Source: Candidatus Thorarchaeota archaeon
GTDB taxonomy: Archaea; Asgardarchaeota; Thorarchaeia; Thorarchaeales; Thorarchaeaceae
Length of the DNA: 27,585 nt
NCBI GenBank assembly: GCA_048882045.1
Contig: JBHLRZ010000037.1
Location: 1 to 27,585 of the forward strand
Direction: 5' to 3'
Below the pieces are notes generated by a model. That model saw only the letters and a list, made by a program, of their open reading frames with translations. It searched no databases and was not told where the DNA came from. Shown here piece after piece: positions 14,076 through 22,551 of the stretch. The position numbers were made by a program, and so were the translations under genes. How positions within the stretch are numbered: position 1 is the first letter of the stretch; the number at the start of each line of letters is the position of its first letter.

Positions 14076-14828
14076 TCATTTCATAATTCTGAAGATTTCT
14101 TGCATATTCTTTGTGAATTCACTATCTGGATGTCGCAAAGTCACCACATATCGGCTTCCAGTTTCAATGAGTAGTGGAAGTAGTGGAATGATGGTGGCAA
14201 CACTTGTCTTGAATTTCTGCTCGACCTCTTTAATGATTGCTTTATTCTCATAGATTCCAGGTTTCTTGTTGATTATAATCTTGATTTCTGGGACTTGCAG
14301 TTTACGAGCAACACTCAATGTAGCTGCTGTACCAAGGAGGTCCTGTTCGTCGATCCTGGCAACAACAAAGAGATAGTCCGCAGTCGCCATGGAGAGTAGG
14401 GTTTCTCTATCCAATCCTGGATGCGTGTCAATGATGAGGTAATCTAGGTCTTTCTTCTTAATAACATCGGTGAATCCCTTCTTGAGGTCTCCAACTTCAT
14501 ATCCTTCTCTGAGAATACGTGTGATGTCAGTAGCAGTCATGGAACTTGGAATTAGAAACAGTTTGCCCTGTTTGATACTCAATCTATCAGTCAGATCGAC
14601 ACATGCATCAGTGATGTCGCATGATCCCCTGAGATAGTCATTGAGGGTATACTTCATCTTCTCTCTACCCAGACCAAAAATCACGTGGATTCCCGGTGAA
14701 GCCATATCTGTGTCCATGACTGCTACTCGTTTTCCATCGAGTGCTGCCATTGCTGCTAGATTGGCAGCAATATTGGACTTGCCTGTTCCACCTCTAAAAC
14801 TATGAATTGATACTATCTTACCTGACAT
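14076..14828 (-). CDS. MinD/ParA-family P-loop ATPase
   Basis: KIVSIHSFRGGTGKSNIAANLA (deviant Walker A with Arg), RVAVMDTDMASPG, DYLIIDTHPG (Walker B), IIINK. Confidence 0.92.
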   Translation of the reverse strand: MSGKIVSIHSFRGGTGKSNIAANLAAMAALDGKRVAVMDTDMASPGIHVIFGLGREKMKYTLNDYLRGSCDITDACVDLTDRLSIKQGKLFLIPSSMTATDITRILREGYEVGDLKKGFTDVIKKKDLDYLIIDTHPGLDRETLLSMATADYLFVVARIDEQDLLGTAATLSVARKLQVPEIKIIINKKPGIYENKAIIKEVEQKFKTSVATIIPLLPLLIETGSRYVVTLRHPDSEFTKNMQEIFRIMK

Positions 14829-16095
14829 GACTCAACACCCTTTCTTTTGGCCATTTAACATGATTTCCTAATGTTCGTAGTACTTCAAGTATTCTTGTTG
14901 CTGGAATCCCTGACCGTTCTTCTATCTCCCGGATTGATAGGCTTCCGTTACAGTATTTCCAGATAGAATCTACGACATCAAAGTCCTTTTTCTTAATTCC
15001 TATGACCTCAAGATATGCAACAAATCGCTCATCTCGGTCCTCCATTATTGGATATAATTTTGCGATTCGAACAATTCCTTTCGCAATTAGTTGCGCAAGA
15101 ACCTCATCCGTTTGATCTCGAATAAGACCGCTTATGTCGTGCATCTCTGCAACAGTCGTAACATTGGTAGCTGCATTGACCATTCTCAATGCTCCTGATT
15201 GAATGCTCTCTGAGAACGAAGAGAGAGCCATCTTGGTTTCTCGACGACTATCTTCTGGCGACATGACAAGTTCAACAGCATCATAATCGTAGAATGAGAT
15301 TGGTCCATCGATTTTCTCTGGTACGAATTTTCTTGCATCTGAAAAACTGGTCAACTCAACTAATGATATGAATGGATTCAAGAGTTCGAGGTATGTCTGC
15401 TCTGAAAGTCCCTTCTGGACAACAAATGCACATACTCCTTTCTTGGTAAGTTTCTTGAAAAGAATGGTTGTGTTCTTGTCCAGACTTGAATGCTCTTTCG
15501 TTTCAGCTGTTTCCTTGATTGAAGGGAGGAAATCAAGAACCGCCTCGAGTTCATATGCTCGAAGATTGGAAACAGCTACATGGCCATCATAAGTAACCAT
15601 CCCTCCCCGTAAAATGTCCCGGTTGATTTCGACCTCTGCAAGAACCTGTTTTAATCGGTTCAATTCCTGCGCAGGAAGCAAAACAGTCTTGTACCTTCTA
15701 GCCAGACCTGGAATTCCATCGAACTTTTGAAGAGTAGTTTCAACGACATCCGCAAATGGTTGGAACTTCTTTGAATGAGGAAGATCTTTCCTGATTTCTT
15801 CATAGAACGTAGAAACGAACTGATCCGCTAGGTCTTGAAGAATGACGCGATGAATCTCGCCACTGTCATCCTCTGAAACTAGAGCTATGAAGTAGAGATC
15901 TCCTTTGCGTTCCCAAACGAGCTTGTTCTGGTCAAATGACATGACTGTGATTCTGTCTTGGCTTACCTCTTTGGCAAATGAACCGACTGCAGAAAGAAAT
16001 GCCGCTGCTAACTCATCTAGCTTACGCGTACCACTCACTGAGTAGTGAAACAACAGTATACCAGAGTCACGCAGAACGACTATCTCCTTTACCAA
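14818..16095 (-). CDS. Longin + roadblock/profilin-like insert + tandem winged-helix protein (NPRL2/NPRL3-like architecture)
   Basis: N-terminal longin pattern (IVVLRDSGILLFHY...FLSAVGSFAKEV...LYFIALV...ILQDLADQFVSTF) and two C-terminal wHTH-like units (TTVAEMHDISGL...VLAQLIAKGIV; CNGSLSIREIEERSGIPATRILEVL). TTG start with GGAGG SD; overlaps the MinD-like gene by 11 nt. Confidence 0.75.
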   Translation of the reverse strand: MVKEIVVLRDSGILLFHYSVSGTRKLDELAAAFLSAVGSFAKEVSQDRITVMSFDQNKLVWERKGDLYFIALVSEDDSGEIHRVILQDLADQFVSTFYEEIRKDLPHSKKFQPFADVVETTLQKFDGIPGLARRYKTVLLPAQELNRLKQVLAEVEINRDILRGGMVTYDGHVAVSNLRAYELEAVLDFLPSIKETAETKEHSSLDKNTTILFKKLTKKGVCAFVVQKGLSEQTYLELLNPFISLVELTSFSDARKFVPEKIDGPISFYDYDAVELVMSPEDSRRETKMALSSFSESIQSGALRMVNAATNVTTVAEMHDISGLIRDQTDEVLAQLIAKGIVRIAKLYPIMEDRDERFVAYLEVIGIKKKDFDVVDSIWKYCNGSLSIREIEERSGIPATRILEVLRTLGNHVKWPKERVLSHVR

Positions 16096-16174: not shown

Positions 16175-17155
16175 TTATTCATTGGATTCTTCCGCAAGAC
16201 CACTGACTTCAATTTGGTTCCACTTTACTTCGTCACCTAACTTCTCAAGAACTTCGTAAAGTCTCTCTGGTACAACTCCCAGCCTCTCACTTACCTCGAC
16301 CAGGGGTCTGGTCCCATTACACAGAGTCTTCGCTCGCTCAAGCAGCTGGTAGTCTTTACTTGGAAGACCGATCAAGTCTAAATATGCGTCAAATCGTGCG
16401 TCGTTCTCCTTTATTATTGGACAGAGTTTTGAGATCTTCAAGAGTCCTCTAATTGCAAGATATTCGACAACTTCTGATATCTCTTCATCAGCCACGCCCA
16501 AATCTCTACTCATATCATGTATCGATGTTTTTCCATCAATCGCGGTAAGGATTCTGTTGCCTGATGCACCTAGGTCCCGATGAAATTCGTCGAGAAATTC
16601 ACCTGACTTTAAGGCTGCATCAAGATATTCCCTTTGCATTTGCGGGATAACGAAAGAGCTGAGACTCGATGTAACTATGAGAATTCCCTCATAATATGTG
16701 AAGACGCTACGCACCTCATTCTCAAAGTCCATGAATACATCCAATACAGGGATGTCCATCCTGAGCTCAGTTTCATATCGTGTAAGAAACCTCTTGCTCA
16801 GCTCACGAAGTACTGCTCTGAGTACATTCTCTGAAGAACCAGTTTCGACTAGAAAGATGAATAGATAGTTTGATCCATATTGTTCGTATAAAAGTTCAGA
16901 ACCCTCGAAAGTAAGACTTTGGATTGATTTTTCGCCAAACTCAGATGCAAAACTTGTGATTGCAGTCAGAAATCCTGACAGTAACTCATCTAATTTCCGT
17001 TCCTCAGATACTGAGTAATGGAAAATTGGGCTTCCTCCTGCTGTCAGAACCATGAATTCTTTCACACCGAGTTTTCCGACCAAGACTGAATCTCCTTGGG
17101 TCTGTCCAGATTCCGAACTGTCTTTAAGATATCGCATGAATCCCGAAACATCCAT
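16175..17155 (-). CDS. Longin + tandem winged-helix protein (NPRL2-like), paralog of the downstream gene
   Basis: FMVLTAGGSPIFHYSVSEERKLDELLSGFLTAITSFASEF longin start; ILTAIDGKTSIHDMSRDLGV...VVEYLAIRGLL and CNGTRPLVEVSERLGV wHTH units. ATG 17155 preferred because 17221 would overlap the divergent gene. Confidence 0.78.
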   Translation of the reverse strand: MDVSGFMRYLKDSSESGQTQGDSVLVGKLGVKEFMVLTAGGSPIFHYSVSEERKLDELLSGFLTAITSFASEFGEKSIQSLTFEGSELLYEQYGSNYLFIFLVETGSSENVLRAVLRELSKRFLTRYETELRMDIPVLDVFMDFENEVRSVFTYYEGILIVTSSLSSFVIPQMQREYLDAALKSGEFLDEFHRDLGASGNRILTAIDGKTSIHDMSRDLGVADEEISEVVEYLAIRGLLKISKLCPIIKENDARFDAYLDLIGLPSKDYQLLERAKTLCNGTRPLVEVSERLGVVPERLYEVLEKLGDEVKWNQIEVSGLAEESNE

Positions 17156-17196
17156 ATCGTTTCCTGATTTCCAAGACTCATCGGTCAGGTGAGAAA

Positions 17197-18747
17197 ATGC
17201 TAGAGTACAGAGAATTTCCATTAAAGACGATGTTCATCTATGTTCTACTTGCTGTTCCTTTGGCGTTCTCTATATTCGTCATTACAGGGCTTCTTTCTGG
17301 AACAATCCTGAACCTCACTGTACTAGAGCAACAGGGACTTCTTGGTCATGGGGCACTAGCAGCAACAATTGCATTACCACTGTCGGGTCTCCTCGTAGAT
17401 AGAATTCGAAAACATGATCTTTCGATGTATCTAGGAGCAGCAATTCCAAGTTTCGTAGTTCTGTTGAGTCTGTTCACAGACATTCCTGGTTTCGCAGAAT
17501 CATTCAATTTGACACTGGCTGTAACAACCTTTGCTTTTCTCACCCTGATGATGATTTCTTGGGCCGCGAGAGTGAACCAAAGTGTGGTTGTAAGATTTCG
17601 TGGAAGGACTGTGGCAACGTTCTTAGCACTAGCTGTTTTCATGTCAGGTGTGTTCTCATACCTCAGAGACGCTGGTATCACCTATGACTCGAATGTTCTC
17701 ATATTTCCAGCACTCATCTCACTTGTTGCAGTCATCATTTCTGCATCATTCAGACCATGGAAGGTCGCACGAGCTTCTCTGACTATTGCTGGAAGTTCAT
17801 TCAAGTACTTCATTCCGACTACCTTCATTATGGGTGCCCATCTGCTATGGTATCTAGTGACAAAGAATGCACTGATTTTGAAAGGTATCGTTTCCCTCAG
17901 TGATGAGGTTGGAGCTGGATTATTTGAGCTAATCCCTTTGATTTTCGCAATAGTGTTAGCTGGTTTAATGGCAGACCGCTTGGGTAGAAAGACTGCATTT
18001 CGATTCATCATCCTCTTGTTGGGCCTCTTGACAATTTTTGGTTCTTCACTTATTGATACGAACAATTTCTCATTCCTTCTCGTATCTGAGAGGTTTGTTG
18101 AGGGGTATCTTCTAGGACTCTGTCTACTCCTCATTTGGCCAGAGCTTGGATCTGTCAAGACCAAGGGTTTTCGACTTTCACTTTACTGGTTCTTCTTCCT
18201 AGGATACATGACTCTCTTCTGGGCATTGGATATCAGGGTGGAGTTGTTTGGCATAACCTTTGCCCCACCTGATTGGCTCTGGACAGTTGGTGGACAGACT
18301 GCTATTGTTCTCTCACTCGGAGCTCTATATCTCACGGGTCCACTTCCAACTACACTGGGTCGTGAAATTGAGATGGAGGATCTGGATTTTGATTTTGATG
18401 AACGCGAAGTGAAAAGGACCGTGGATGCATTTGTTGGGCGAGATGACTTTGATTCTATTCGGAGTCAGTTAGACATTATCGACGCTGGGACGGATCTCAG
18501 TGATAGTGAGATGAATGCAATCCTAGGTGATGAGTTAAAGGACATGCTCCCCTTACGTCGTGTACCCGGTATTGGTGGAAGTCTAGAGAAAAAGCTGAGT
18601 GCGGCGGGGTATGAGTCCGCCGCTCAGTTGGCTGGCGAGTCAGCTCAACGCCTTTCCCAGAAGATTAATGGGCTGAGTGTCGCTGGCGCTGAGAAGATTC
18701 TCAAGAGTGCGCGTAAAGTCGTAAAAAAGACAGTCAAGAAGAAGTAG
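17197..18747 (+). CDS. MFS-like transporter fused to acidic linker and C-terminal helix-hairpin-helix domain
   Basis: About 12 TM with MFS motif A in both halves (GLLVDRIRK, GLMADRLGRK). C-terminus LRRVPGIGGSLEKKLSAAGYES...INGLSVAGAEKIL is a RadA-N/HhH_5-like pattern. AGGTGA SD. Confidence 0.8.
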   Translation: MLEYREFPLKTMFIYVLLAVPLAFSIFVITGLLSGTILNLTVLEQQGLLGHGALAATIALPLSGLLVDRIRKHDLSMYLGAAIPSFVVLLSLFTDIPGFAESFNLTLAVTTFAFLTLMMISWAARVNQSVVVRFRGRTVATFLALAVFMSGVFSYLRDAGITYDSNVLIFPALISLVAVIISASFRPWKVARASLTIAGSSFKYFIPTTFIMGAHLLWYLVTKNALILKGIVSLSDEVGAGLFELIPLIFAIVLAGLMADRLGRKTAFRFIILLLGLLTIFGSSLIDTNNFSFLLVSERFVEGYLLGLCLLLIWPELGSVKTKGFRLSLYWFFFLGYMTLFWALDIRVELFGITFAPPDWLWTVGGQTAIVLSLGALYLTGPLPTTLGREIEMEDLDFDFDEREVKRTVDAFVGRDDFDSIRSQLDIIDAGTDLSDSEMNAILGDELKDMLPLRRVPGIGGSLEKKLSAAGYESAAQLAGESAQRLSQKINGLSVAGAEKILKSARKVVKKTVKKK

Positions 18748-18753
18748 ATCGAA

Positions 18754-19620
18754 CTACTTCGGCTTGTCCATCAAGGCTGTCTTCGTCTTCACTTTGCCCT
18801 TTGAAACGTGTGGATTCCGGAGGACTGAATCTTCGGCCTTCTCAAGCTCTCTGATTTCATCTGAGAGATTCGCTGCAACTCTCATCATTTCATGACCAGC
18901 AGCTACAAGTGGTATGTAGTCTTCTGCCTCTTTTGTCTTGAAGCACCCTTCTGATGTAATGTCCGCCACAGCTTCGGCAATAGCTAATGCTGCAAGGGCT
19001 TTAACTCTCGCATATGGATTCTTGAAGTAACCACATTTCACAGCTTTCTTGGCAGTCAACTTCAATTGAGGCATTTCAGGTGTTTCACCAGCTTGAAAAG
19101 CTGCAACAATCTTGTCAAGCTCATTCTGGATGGCTCGCATCACACCTGTGACTGCCAAGACCTTGATTGCATCAGCATTGAACAGGGTCATCTCAGTGGG
19201 ATCGAGAAACTCCTTCTTGGCACCAATCATCGAGTCTGCAGGAATTACAATGAATCCCTGCCCTTCAAGAACATGAGGTTTCTTCTTCCCTTCTTCATTC
19301 TTCTTATAGAATGCCTTTTCAGCTGGACCGTCAGATATCGCCACTGTTGGAATCTTTGCTTTTGCCAACATCTCCCTCGCCTTTGAAGGGCCTGGAAGGG
19401 CTGCATTCGGGCTTACAATGATTGCAAAATGAGGTTTCCAGGCAATCAATGACTCAACAGGCCCTGCTGCTGACTCTTCGTCCATCTTTGCTCCGCTTGT
19501 GAAAGCTCGAACGTGTATATCGTCTCTTTCTGCTCGTTCATCAAACATAAGGTCAAGAAGAGGTGCAGAAGCAATCGCACCGAGTTTGATTACTCCTACA
19601 TTTATTGTAGTAACTGACAT
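18754..19620 (-). CDS. mtd: F420-dependent methylene-tetrahydromethanopterin dehydrogenase
   Basis: VGVIKLGAI, LDLMFDERAERDDI.VR..TSGAKM, SPNAALPGP..ARE, DSMIGAKKEFLDPTEM.LFNAD..KVLA.TG, F.NPYAR.KA, AAGHEMMR, RELEKA.D.V.R.PH. Confidence 0.96.
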   Translation of the reverse strand: MSVTTINVGVIKLGAIASAPLLDLMFDERAERDDIHVRAFTSGAKMDEESAAGPVESLIAWKPHFAIIVSPNAALPGPSKAREMLAKAKIPTVAISDGPAEKAFYKKNEEGKKKPHVLEGQGFIVIPADSMIGAKKEFLDPTEMTLFNADAIKVLAVTGVMRAIQNELDKIVAAFQAGETPEMPQLKLTAKKAVKCGYFKNPYARVKALAALAIAEAVADITSEGCFKTKEAEDYIPLVAAGHEMMRVAANLSDEIRELEKAEDSVLRNPHVSKGKVKTKTALMDKPK

Positions 19621-19676: not shown

Positions 19677-20591
19677 TCACTCTTTTGGATAATATGCCAG
19701 ACCTGTGCCAGCCAGGAGGTCTGCTCCTCTTAGATGTTTATTACAGGTGGCACACCTGAATACGATCTTTGGGTCATTAGAAGCTGTTCCACAATTGTTG
19801 CAAAGAGGTTCAACATCTATTATAGATAGGTTTCCTACCTTTACTGGTTCCTTGCAATTCAGACAAGTGACTTCAGCAATATCATCAGCCATCACAGCAT
19901 GGAATTGATTGCTACACTTTGGACAAAAGAGAGTGTATACTTTGTGAATATCAGTTGACTCACAATTCGGACAAAGTAACTCAATGGTTAAATCGGAATC
20001 CCCGCATTGTCTACATTCCACACGTCGTCCGTAGGTACGTGATTCGAGTAGATCCTCATCTTCAAGGTCCTTTAACATCCTCACGACTTCAGCATCATCA
20101 GATCCAAAGTAATTACGGGCATCTGGATATCTAACTGAAGCACGAAGTACATGTTTTGGTCTGATCGCTACTACTCTATTGGAAGTGATATCCTCAACAA
20201 GTTTCTTCACTGAGGGATTTGTGAGTAGTGCAGCTCCACTTGTTTCATCTATCAGCTCCTTGAGGAGCTCAAAAGCTCTTTGAAGCTCATTGTCCCATTT
20301 GTCACTATCGAAATCGATATACTTGACTAGTCGAAGTAGATTACGTTCAATTACTGTAGGATTTTCACCTTCCTCAAGGTGAATCGCTATGCAGTTTGGC
20401 ACTTTCATATACGAGATAAACAAACCTCTCTGTAACTTTGAATATCCGATTTCTGCTTCCCTATTCACACCGTGTCCCATGAAAATGAGTAATGCTTCTT
20501 CTCCTGTCAAAGGATCAGTTTCTGGAAATGAACGTCCTACTGAGGGTCCGAGGTTATCGTCCCACCAAATCGAATGAATCGCTTTTGGCAC
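19677..20591 (-). CDS. uDENN/longin-like N-terminal domain fused to wHTH + multi-zinc-ribbon module (TackOD1-like)
   Basis: N-terminus AIHSIWWDDNLGPSVGRSFPE has the aromatic-D-x3-GP-x5-P pattern; RYP...VRMLKDLEDEDLLE is wHTH-like; six CxxC pairs (CRQC, CPNC, CPKC, CLNC, CNNC, CATC). Confidence 0.7.
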   Translation of the reverse strand: MPKAIHSIWWDDNLGPSVGRSFPETDPLTGEEALLIFMGHGVNREAEIGYSKLQRGLFISYMKVPNCIAIHLEEGENPTVIERNLLRLVKYIDFDSDKWDNELQRAFELLKELIDETSGAALLTNPSVKKLVEDITSNRVVAIRPKHVLRASVRYPDARNYFGSDDAEVVRMLKDLEDEDLLESRTYGRRVECRQCGDSDLTIELLCPNCESTDIHKVYTLFCPKCSNQFHAVMADDIAEVTCLNCKEPVKVGNLSIIDVEPLCNNCGTASNDPKIVFRCATCNKHLRGADLLAGTGLAYYPKE

Positions 20592-20793: not shown

Positions 20794-22551
20794 ATGGTCT
20801 CACATGGTCGCAATAACTCAGCAATCCTATTTGTGCTGGTATGGTTGTTCGTCTCACCCTTCGTTTTGACAACTAGCCATATTGACCCAGCATTTTCTCC
20901 CGTAGATAATATGGAGCTGGCTGCACCTACGATATCTGGACCACCAGTTTATGAATTTGAGAATGGAACTGTTGGACACACTCTTGTCTATCATGCTTCT
21001 GATTCCAATCCAAAGAACTACTCAGTAACTGTGAACGGAGAAGTTTTCGACCACGGACTCTGGAGTGGAGGTGAAATAACCGTCTACCTCGTACAGCTGT
21101 ACCTCGGAGATTGGATTGACACACTCCCAAAGGAATTGACCTTCATCTGTACAGTGTTCAATAATGGAGGAGAGAGTGCATCAGCAACCACAGTTGTTAC
21201 AGTCGTTCCAGACACATCTGCGCCGATCATCGAACAGCCAGAGAACATCACATATGAAGAGGGAAGCTTCGGACATGAAATCCGGTGGAATATTACCGAA
21301 GCCAATCCAGAATTTTACAACATCACACGAATATCCAATGAGTCAGGGACCAATTATACCGAGATCGAAAGTGGCGATTGGGGTCATGAAAACTTCACAA
21401 TTAATGTAGATGGACTCAATGCAACTCATTGGTATCTATATACTCTGTTCGTACGAGATAAGTTCGATCGAAATGCAACAAGTCATGTCAATGTTACAGT
21501 TTTGCCTGACACTACGAATCCAACAATAACATCTCCAGATGATGTTGCTTATGAGTTTGGAGCTGAGGGGTATGAGATATTATGGCACGCATTCGATAGT
21601 AATCCAAAGAACTACACGATTACTTCGCTGATTCTCTTTAATGACACTCTGTACGGCAACTATTCCGCTTTTCATACATTCATCGATGTAGTGCAACCTG
21701 ATTGGATATTCACTGATCCCGATGGACAAGACATCATAGTTGACCTTGATGGTCTCTACCTTGGAAACTACTCGATTACCCTCACTCTGTTTGATGACTA
21801 CGGTAGAATGACAAATGATACCGTAAATGTCACAGTCTATGAGGACATCCGAGCACCCATTATCACACCTTCTAGAGACCTTTCATATGAAGAAGGATAT
21901 ACTGGCAACCATATCAACTGGACAGTGGATGAGAACAATCCATTATATTACAATCTCACCTTAGACGGCGTAAGCTTAGAGAATAGTACTTGGGATGGTT
22001 CTGGATACGAGTTAGATGTTGATGGTTTCGACGTAGGTGTCTATGTCTACAATATGTCCTACACCGACTTCTTCAATCAGACTGCCTTCGCACTGATTGA
22101 AGTGACAGTACTGGCTGATTCGCATGTACCTACAGTGTTAGGTATTACTACAATTCAGACCTTCAGTACACCTTCCTCGAGTAACCTGACAATTCAAGCT
22201 TATGTCTGGGATCTGAATAATATTCACAGTATCAAGATTGAATGGGGTGTTGGAGACCCAGAGAGTGCTGATTTCACATCTGAAACGACGGACATGGAAG
22301 AGAGTGAGATTAGTGACATCTTTGTTACTCACCTCGGTGAATTCGATGTCGGTCAGCAGGTTTGGTTCAAGATTCTTGCAACTGACAACTCTTCAGTGAA
22401 TCTTGTCTATGACTCAGGTTGGCGGAACGTAGTCATCACGGTCCAGAGCTATGGTGGAGCACCTGCACCAATCTACGCGGTTGTCGGCGTTCTGGGAGGA
22501 CTGTCCCTAATCGTTATCTTGGTGATGTACTTCAGGACAAAGACACGGTAG
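20794..22551 (+). CDS. Cell-surface glycoprotein with signal peptide, about 4-5 Ig-like beta-sandwich repeats and C-terminal TM anchor
   Basis: Repeats of P-x-I-x2-P-x3-4-YE-x-G-x2-G-x2-I-x-W-x3-D/E-x-NP-x2-Y four times; many N-x-S/T sequons; terminal TM followed by RTKTR. Confidence 0.85.
   Translation: MVSHGRNNSAILFVLVWLFVSPFVLTTSHIDPAFSPVDNMELAAPTISGPPVYEFENGTVGHTLVYHASDSNPKNYSVTVNGEVFDHGLWSGGEITVYLVQLYLGDWIDTLPKELTFICTVFNNGGESASATTVVTVVPDTSAPIIEQPENITYEEGSFGHEIRWNITEANPEFYNITRISNESGTNYTEIESGDWGHENFTINVDGLNATHWYLYTLFVRDKFDRNATSHVNVTVLPDTTNPTITSPDDVAYEFGAEGYEILWHAFDSNPKNYTITSLILFNDTLYGNYSAFHTFIDVVQPDWIFTDPDGQDIIVDLDGLYLGNYSITLTLFDDYGRMTNDTVNVTVYEDIRAPIITPSRDLSYEEGYTGNHINWTVDENNPLYYNLTLDGVSLENSTWDGSGYELDVDGFDVGVYVYNMSYTDFFNQTAFALIEVTVLADSHVPTVLGITTIQTFSTPSSSNLTIQAYVWDLNNIHSIKIEWGVGDPESADFTSETTDMEESEISDIFVTHLGEFDVGQQVWFKILATDNSSVNLVYDSGWRNVVITVQSYGGAPAPIYAVVGVLGGLSLIVILVMYFRTKTR

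Follow-up and report, generated by a model that had tools for sequence, protein, structure and literature searches.

A divergent MFS-fold membrane protein with a predicted cytoplasmic helix-hairpin-helix tail is linked to a longin/ParA operon in Asgard archaea

A stretch of 27,585 bp of Candidatus Thorarchaeota archaeon DNA (GenBank assembly GCA_048882045.1, contig JBHLRZ010000037.1, positions 1 to 27,585 of the forward strand; hereafter the window) carries a gene, here called MFS-HhH, in which a membrane body of major facilitator superfamily (MFS) fold is joined to a helix-hairpin-helix (HhH) domain. The open reading frame (ORF) occupies positions 17197..18747 (+) and encodes 516 amino acids (aa), comprising the MFS-fold body, an acidic linker, a double HhH unit, (HhH)2, and a Lys-rich end. 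The MFS carriers MCT8 (8zko), VMAT2 (8jsw), OCTN2 (9pdq), Spns1 (9boi), DgoT (6e9o), and NorA share with it the arrangement of 12 helices as a pair of six-helix bundles (Z 26-27.5 across some 340-370 residues), the motif A of the loops, and the Arg/Gly-rich helix junctions described below. Unlike these carriers, MFS-HhH has a 130-residue cytoplasmic tail with a domain of the nucleic-acid-binding type, a sequence divergent from the Pfam model, and a better motif A in the C-half, not in the N-half. The Escherichia coli protein YajR (Jiang et al., PNAS 2013 and BBRC 2014) is reportedly an MFS member with an extra cytoplasmic C-terminal YAM domain. The YAM domain has a ferredoxin-like fold and is not known to have a link to nucleic acids. 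In both proteins, the MFS body is followed after transmembrane helix (TM) 12 by a small, independently folded cytoplasmic domain; YajR is an architectural analogue only, with a YAM domain in place of (HhH)2, and it was not among the best 50 structural matches shown. The tail itself resembles the N-terminal (HhH)2 of RadA/Rad51 (30-40% identity, root-mean-square deviation (rmsd) 1.1-1.7 Å over 56-60 residues, with the same hairpins and helix order), differing in that it is borne by a membrane protein, where RadA/Rad51 have a recombinase core, and in the extra Lys-rich end. Small helical modules that bind DNA non-specifically are held at a membrane in ComEA of bacterial competence and in the LEM/HeH proteins of the inner nuclear membrane. 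In ComEA, the HhH lies outside on a single anchor, whereas the MFS-HhH tail is predicted to be cytoplasmic on a 12-TM carrier fold; an HhH outside the cytoplasmic membrane, as in ComEA, was not indicated here, the predicted tail being inside with the Lys/Arg (K/R) bias on the same side. LEM/HeH domains have a fold different from (HhH)2, and no homology is implied for either LEM/HeH or ComEA.

The genes adjoining MFS-HhH recall the ParA-winged-helix (wHTH) system of the ConB2 assemblage, a largely archaeal system whose hallmark is an Arg replacing the signature Lys of Walker A (Li, Burroughs and Aravind, bioRxiv 2026, 10.64898/2026.10.19.760177). In that preprint, the wHTH proteins are described as rapidly evolving and sometimes fused to profilin/longin-like domains, and the module is predicted to bind DNA and proposed to intercept or coat invader DNA in an immunity role. 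The operon in the window is similar in having a ParA with Arg in the Walker A motif (FRGGTGKS) and longin plus TrmB-type wHTH domains in both neighbours, and dissimilar in that its locus is a stable part of the core genome and that its membrane partner is conserved. The text of the preprint contains no 'MFS' and mentions HhH only for effector-ParAB, another system; among the papers searched, none combined Asgard, MFS, and helix-hairpin-helix, and none on an MFS-HhH fusion was found. MFS-HhH is tentatively interpreted here as a membrane-bound, nucleic-acid-contacting partner of the divergent longin-wHTH/ParA-ATPase module that would serve as a tether or as an anchor for positioning, an explanation that is preferred at somewhat less than an even chance.

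The membrane domain (residues 1-387, 17197..18357, +) has an MFS fold with 12 TM helices and both termini predicted to be cytoplasmic (AF2, Foldseek, VIA). Hydropathy analysis gave 12 hydrophobic segments, and the AlphaFold2 (AF2) model obtained from 30 homologues showed 12 long helices with a mean predicted local distance difference test score (pLDDT) of 82.4, mostly 80-96 in the first 370 residues. In a Foldseek comparison of the body with the PDB, every top match was an MFS carrier (prob 1.00). The VIA re-alignment to MCT8 gave a Z of 27.5 and an rmsd of 3.9 Å with 346 residues aligned; VMAT2, OCTN2, Spns1/2, G6PT, DgoT, and NorA were within one Z unit of MCT8. By language-model features (Atlas), the nearest neighbours of MFS-HhH were archaeal MFS_1 clusters (0.93). 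The motif A pattern G-x3-D-[RK]-x-G-R-[RK], sought in the TM2-TM3 and/or TM8-TM9 loop, was found as a canonical copy, GLMADRLGRK, in the TM8-TM9 loop (residues 256-265, 17962..17991, +), and the TM2-TM3 loop contains GLLVDRIRK (residues 64-72, 17386..17412, +). Of the two motif A copies named in a preliminary description of this DNA, made from the letters and their ORFs, the former thus stands in full and the latter is only partial. Residues D260, G263, R264, and K265 of the canonical copy and D68 of the partial one are at least 85% conserved, as are the Arg/Gly-rich TM4-TM5 and TM10-TM11 junctions (RFRGR and WPELG..K..R, respectively). The Pfam model MFS_1 (PF07690) scored 16.5 bits against a gathering cut-off of 33.4, covering residues 242-306 only, and reached an E value of 0.01 or better in just 4 of the 30 family members; with the 30-sequence family profile, no MFS chain was retrieved from the PDB sequences at E values up to 1. 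Since MFS_1 remained below its cut-off, the assignment rests on fold, motifs, and language-model features. By its modelled fold and its motifs, and not by a curated sequence model, the membrane body is a very divergent MFS.

The K/R residues cluster in the loops and helix ends of the cytoplasmic side, the strict loops containing 8 inside and 2 outside. This bias, together with the MFS topology, predicts that the tail after TM12 should be cytoplasmic, in line with the inside C-terminus expected in the preliminary description. Conserved Glu residues are located within the membrane in TM8 and TM10 (E244, E298, and E302), which suggests that the carrier may still be cycling or proton-coupled.

The segment between TM12 and the (HhH)2 domain (residues 388-449) is acidic, with 21 Asp/Glu (D/E) and 7 K/R, and was divided into two parts. 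Linker A (residues 388-432, 18358..18492, +; 15 D/E and 6 K/R) is conserved and predicted to be helical, although not confidently packed. Ten of its positions are at least 85% conserved (E390, E392, E394, L396, D401, V405, V409, S420, I421, and Q424) and are kept even in Hodarchaeota members of about 25% identity. Such a combination of conservation, helicity, and low pLDDT fits a segment that may fold on a partner or on the cytoplasmic face of the carrier. Linker B (residues 433-449, 18493..18543, +) is variable (conservation 0.54), also acidic, and missing from the Hodarchaeota-type members of the alignment. The (HhH)2 domain (residues 450-507, 18544..18717, +) is of the RadA/Rad51 N-terminal type, with the hairpins PGIGG and NGLS. 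Pfam HHH_5 matched it at residues 453-507 (29.4 bits; cut-off 27), and the same model matched all 30 aligned family members (best E value 1.6e-10); the best, weak, NCBIfam matches were RadA models. In the search of the family profile against the PDB, the Rad51/RadA N-terminal domain came first (E 1.8e-9), followed by Topo V, archaeal eL32 (in ribosome structures), and NusA. The AF2 model of the domain has pLDDT values above 90 and superposes on RadA (3ew9) with an rmsd of 1.1 Å over 59 residues (30% identity) and on human RAD51 with 1.5-1.7 Å (35-37% identity). The C-terminal domain is thus, from its sequence and model, a genuine (HhH)2, and non-specific nucleic-acid binding would be expected from its family. 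It is followed by the Lys-rich end VVKKTVKKK (residues 508-516, 18718..18744, +), which is present in nearly all MFS-HhH members and longer in those from Hodarchaeota. The cytoplasmic tail is better conserved than the membrane body: linker A reached a mean column conservation of 0.70 and (HhH)2 one of 0.71, compared with 0.47 and 0.60 in the TM halves. The fusion of a 12-TM MFS transporter to an HhH domain, the acidic linker, the double HhH unit, and the basic tail, all proposed in the preliminary description, were recovered as described by AF2, Foldseek, VIA, and Pfam HHH_5.

The proteins sharing only this HhH, as far as they were scanned, were fusions to the ribosomal proteins eL32 and eS25, the A subunit of Topo VI with HhH repeats at its N-terminus, and proteins consisting of HhH alone. 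Among Asgard archaea and their relatives, HHH_5 occurs in 2-7 copies at the N-terminus of Topo VI subunit A (P0137 and P0144) and in 2-4 copies fused to the ribosomal proteins eL32 (P0142 and P0155) and eS25 (P0147 and P0150); a frame of this kind, 700-750 aa long, was found in each genome of the genus. Because it was found on Topo VI-A, eL32, and eS25, the HhH module in these archaea appears to ride on nucleic-acid-bound proteins.

The distribution of the fusion was estimated by several searches. A word-indexed search yielded 194 relatives of MFS-HhH, of which the listed full-length ones were 490-590 aa long and nearly all had a precomputed HHH_5. An exhaustive phmmer search of 1.84 billion cluster representatives returned only 39 clusters, which marks the family as narrow; all the full-length ones belonged to the MFS-HhH family, the rest shared the HhH alone, and an MFS-HhH fusion of unrelated origin was not encountered. 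The 400 genomes of the phylum covered by a profile search came from 33 families. Full-length MFS-HhH was found in three families only, namely the window's own (f1), its sister (f2), and f12, and elsewhere only the HhH part was detected. It occurs in many genera of f1, in the single genome of f2 (G025), and in 18 of the 19 genomes of f12, a family whose P0146 is listed by NCBI under 'Candidatus Hodarchaeota archaeon'. All three branches keep the fusion intact, including members at about 25% identity. An assembly artefact or a fused gene call, the objection raised by the preliminary description itself, was rejected, as the same architecture occurs in about 190 proteins and in six-frame genome searches, nearly all without internal stops.

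Head-to-head with MFS-HhH, the window encodes longin-wHTH protein A (16175..17155, -; Pfam Fuz_longin_1 26.9 bits, weak TrmB/wHTH), then longin-wHTH protein B, which has a roadblock-like insert (14818..16095, -; TrmB 30.5 bits, Fuz_longin_1 weak), and then a 250-aa ParA/MinD-type ATPase (14076..14828, -; AAA_31/ParA/CbiA) with Arg at the signature position of Walker A. The NCBIfam model minD_arch was below its cut-off for this ATPase. In f1, the head-to-head arrangement of MFS-HhH and longin A was observed in the window and in 31 of the 33 other loci, from many genera, and two loci have about 2 kb between the genes. In f12, all 14 contigs with a readable flank have MFS-HhH head-to-head with a single longin-wHTH gene plus a ParA gene; the other neighbours differ, a methyltransferase lying downstream of MFS-HhH in place of the Mtd/TackOD1 genes of the window described below. 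The linkage to the longin/MinD genes noted in the preliminary description is therefore kept across two distant lineages. The co-occurrence expected there was also found, the longin-wHTH genes having the same range as MFS-HhH (f1, f2, and f12) apart from three marginal matches elsewhere. The one f12 genome without longin-wHTH is the same genome that lacks MFS-HhH. In a hand count of the f1 genomes, 72 had both longin and MFS-HhH, nine had neither (two of them 92% and 97% complete), and five had only one; these kin are not independent, and the counts are taken as support, not as proof. Between f1, f2, and f12, the identities were about 26-28% for MFS-HhH, about 29-31% for longin, and about 55-61% for ParA, with the same three deep branches; on these sequences, the parallel identities of the three genes fit joint inheritance.

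Several variants of the locus were observed. In L094 (G377) and L085 (G370), both of one genus, longin B is missing, and in L094 longin A directly precedes ParA. In L082, L083, L087, L088, and L091, unrelated DNA of 2-4 kb separates longin A from longin B or MFS-HhH from longin A. In Hodarchaeota-type loci, a 551-aa N6-adenine-methyltransferase-like protein with an NPPF motif always follows MFS-HhH on the same strand (L031, 10508-12163 (+); equivalents in L062-L074).

According to the explanation preferred here, the linker after TM12 would keep (HhH)2 and the Lys-rich end on the inner side of the membrane, where both would bind DNA irrespective of its sequence. This same DNA would be bound by the wHTH proteins and a ParA dimer, and linker A may be where the longin proteins or the ATPase dock, or else a latch on the cytoplasmic face of the transporter. 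Together, MFS-HhH, the longin-wHTH proteins, and ParA would hold or position DNA at the membrane, be it the chromosome or a different replicon. Having kept motif A and E244, E298, and E302, the MFS body probably still switches conformation and may couple the DNA contact to a solute or proton signal. The architecture, the fold, the logic of the topology, the conservation of the fusion, the linkage, and the co-distribution come from the present analysis; DNA binding by the tail, physical contact with the neighbours, and any transport are inferred.

A number of observations weigh against this explanation. The region of about 20 kb around the locus is collinear throughout f1, so the adjacency of the genes there adds little, and independent support for the linkage comes essentially from one extra lineage, f12. 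In the f2 genome, the MFS-HhH gene is located mid-way along an 80-kb contig and the longin locus occurs on another contig, which shows that the two need not adjoin. The co-absence in f1 may reflect a single missing contig because the genes adjoin. The model of the linker is of low confidence; even when the tail was remodelled by AF2 from 114 sequences, residues 380-450 stayed at pLDDT 46-70. Contacts between proteins, too, can be mediated by (HhH)2 domains, and NusA AR domains were among the profile matches. Finally, conserved divergent gene pairs most often consist of a regulator and its target. This last point would suit an ordinary proton-coupled secondary transporter, with a tail that regulates or oligomerises the carrier and wHTH neighbours acting as its divergent transcription regulators. 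The MFS fold, the intact motif A, the conserved intramembrane Glu of TM8 and TM10, the TrmB-like wHTH of the neighbours, the very short shared spacer, the 'MFS family permease' name given to one member in IMG, and the YajR precedent for an MFS with an extra cytoplasmic domain are all consistent with it. Such a transporter is nevertheless considered unlikely, if still a serious alternative: the most conserved part of MFS-HhH is the tail, which is of a nucleic-acid-binding type otherwise carried by Topo VI-A and ribosomal proteins; a regulator-target pair leaves the tightly coupled ParA ATPase and the longin domains unexplained; and the co-distribution holds even where the genes are unlinked.

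The resemblance of the operon to the ParA-wHTH system, with the ConB2 Arg-for-Lys replacement in Walker A and wHTH proteins bearing profilin/longin-like domains, could instead indicate an anti-invader system, in which MFS-HhH would serve at the membrane, either capturing DNA as it enters or acting as the effector. Weak matches of the ParA ATPase to the PADLOC candidate family PDC-M28B point the same way, whereas PADLOC found nothing for MFS-HhH or the longin proteins. Across many genera, and unlike typical patchy defence islands, the locus belongs to a core region that is collinear and is inherited stably beside housekeeping genes such as Mtd, and its proteins are well conserved in contrast to the rapidly evolving wHTH of the preprint, which lists no MFS or HhH partner for the ParA-wHTH system (10.64898/2026.10.19.760177). 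A defence function is accordingly rated as improbable. The preliminary description had offered two functional readings, a nutrient sensor feeding a GATOR-like complex by analogy with SLC38A9-Rag and a membrane anchor for nucleoid positioning. A transceptor that passes nutrient signals to a GATOR1-like longin complex, as SLC38A9 does with Rag GTPases, would agree with neighbours that join longin and winged-helix domains like NPRL2/NPRL3 and with a transporter fold having a long conserved cytoplasmic tail. The analogy fits poorly and is very improbable, as the conserved unit contains no Rag-type or other small GTPase, its NTPase being of the ParA/MinD type, and RadA-type (HhH)2 has no role in the SLC38A9-Rag-GATOR pathway. 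Moreover, the membrane fold is MFS, from which the amino-acid-transporter fold of SLC38A9 is distinct. Anchoring of DNA or the nucleoid at the membrane is the better of these two readings and agrees with the DNA binding predicted in the preprint. The nucleic acid contacted might also be RNA, with the (HhH)2 tail binding rRNA or mRNA and bringing translation to the membrane; the fusions of the HHH_5 module to eL32 and eS25 in related archaea and the archaeal eL32 chains among the profile matches would be in keeping with this. The closest sequence and structure matches, however, are DNA-binding modules of RadA/Rad51 and Topo V/VI, and the linked neighbours are DNA-type proteins (wHTH and ParA), so that an RNA or ribosome tether is the least probable of the explanations considered.

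The translation start of MFS-HhH was assigned to position 17197 because the N-terminal MLEYREFP (within the first eleven residues) is kept in most aligned relatives and a Shine-Dalgarno (SD)-like GGTGA is located at 17188-17192, 4 nt 5' of the ATG. For the same reasons, a start at Met-12, which one database gene call uses (P0001, 505 aa), was ruled out. In the databases, the nearest proteins carry the name 'MAG: helix-hairpin-helix domain-containing protein [Candidatus Thorarchaeota archaeon]', and the names of the relatives disagree, including 'HhH domain protein', 'MFS permease', and 'flap endonuclease-like nuclease'. An overlap of 25 nt between MFS-HhH and the longin gene was an artefact of choosing the longest ORF; the conserved start of longin A (MDVS...) is at 17155, which leaves a divergent spacer of 41 bp (17156..17196, unstranded). 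The start-to-start spacers of most relatives are also short (extrapolated 41-91 bp), with two exceptions of 137 bp and about 2.4 kb, and within the genus the spacer shrinks to about 40-50 bp when the conserved MDVS start marks its end. By visual inspection, the divergent spacers of the relatives share no palindrome, just an SD-like GGTG/GGAG before the MFS-HhH start.

Directly downstream of MFS-HhH and convergent with it, the window encodes an F420-dependent methylene-tetrahydromethanopterin dehydrogenase (Mtd; 18754-19620, -; Pfam MTD, E 2.9e-109). As the gene is present in some relatives and missing in others (e.g., L025, L028, L029, L034, L076, L077, and L080), Mtd is a variable insertion, the region being collinear otherwise. 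The next gene encodes a protein of 304 aa (19677-20591, -) in which a TackOD1 zinc-ribbon output domain was recognised (E 2.7e-18); it stays beside MFS-HhH in every f1 locus examined and is not adjacent to it in Hodarchaeota-type loci. It is followed by a 585-aa protein (20794-22551, +; weak Pfam PKD) with an N-terminal hydrophobic segment, Ig/PKD-like repeats, very many N-x-S/T sequons, and a C-terminal TM anchor; this protein resembles a surface glycoprotein and is conserved in f1.

In a more specific form, which is possible but rather doubtful, MFS-HhH would be a dedicated Asgard membrane-chromosome tether, present in Thorarchaeia and Hodarchaeota, holding DNA through its (HhH)2 tail and working with the ParA ATPase and the NPRL2/3-like longin-wHTH proteins, possibly gated by the conformation of the transporter. 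If so, the tether would be a prokaryotic functional analogue of the way in which chromatin is attached at the inner nuclear membrane. No known organisms are more closely related to eukaryotes than the Asgard archaea, and Hodarchaeota are reportedly placed next to eukaryotes by recent phylogenies. To the ParA-wHTH module, hitherto described solely as a soluble pair, the protein would add a membrane partner that had been missing. Should the tail prove to be just a regulator of transport, MFS-HhH would still represent a new MFS architecture. It provides a concrete, testable candidate for membrane-DNA coupling in Asgard archaea.

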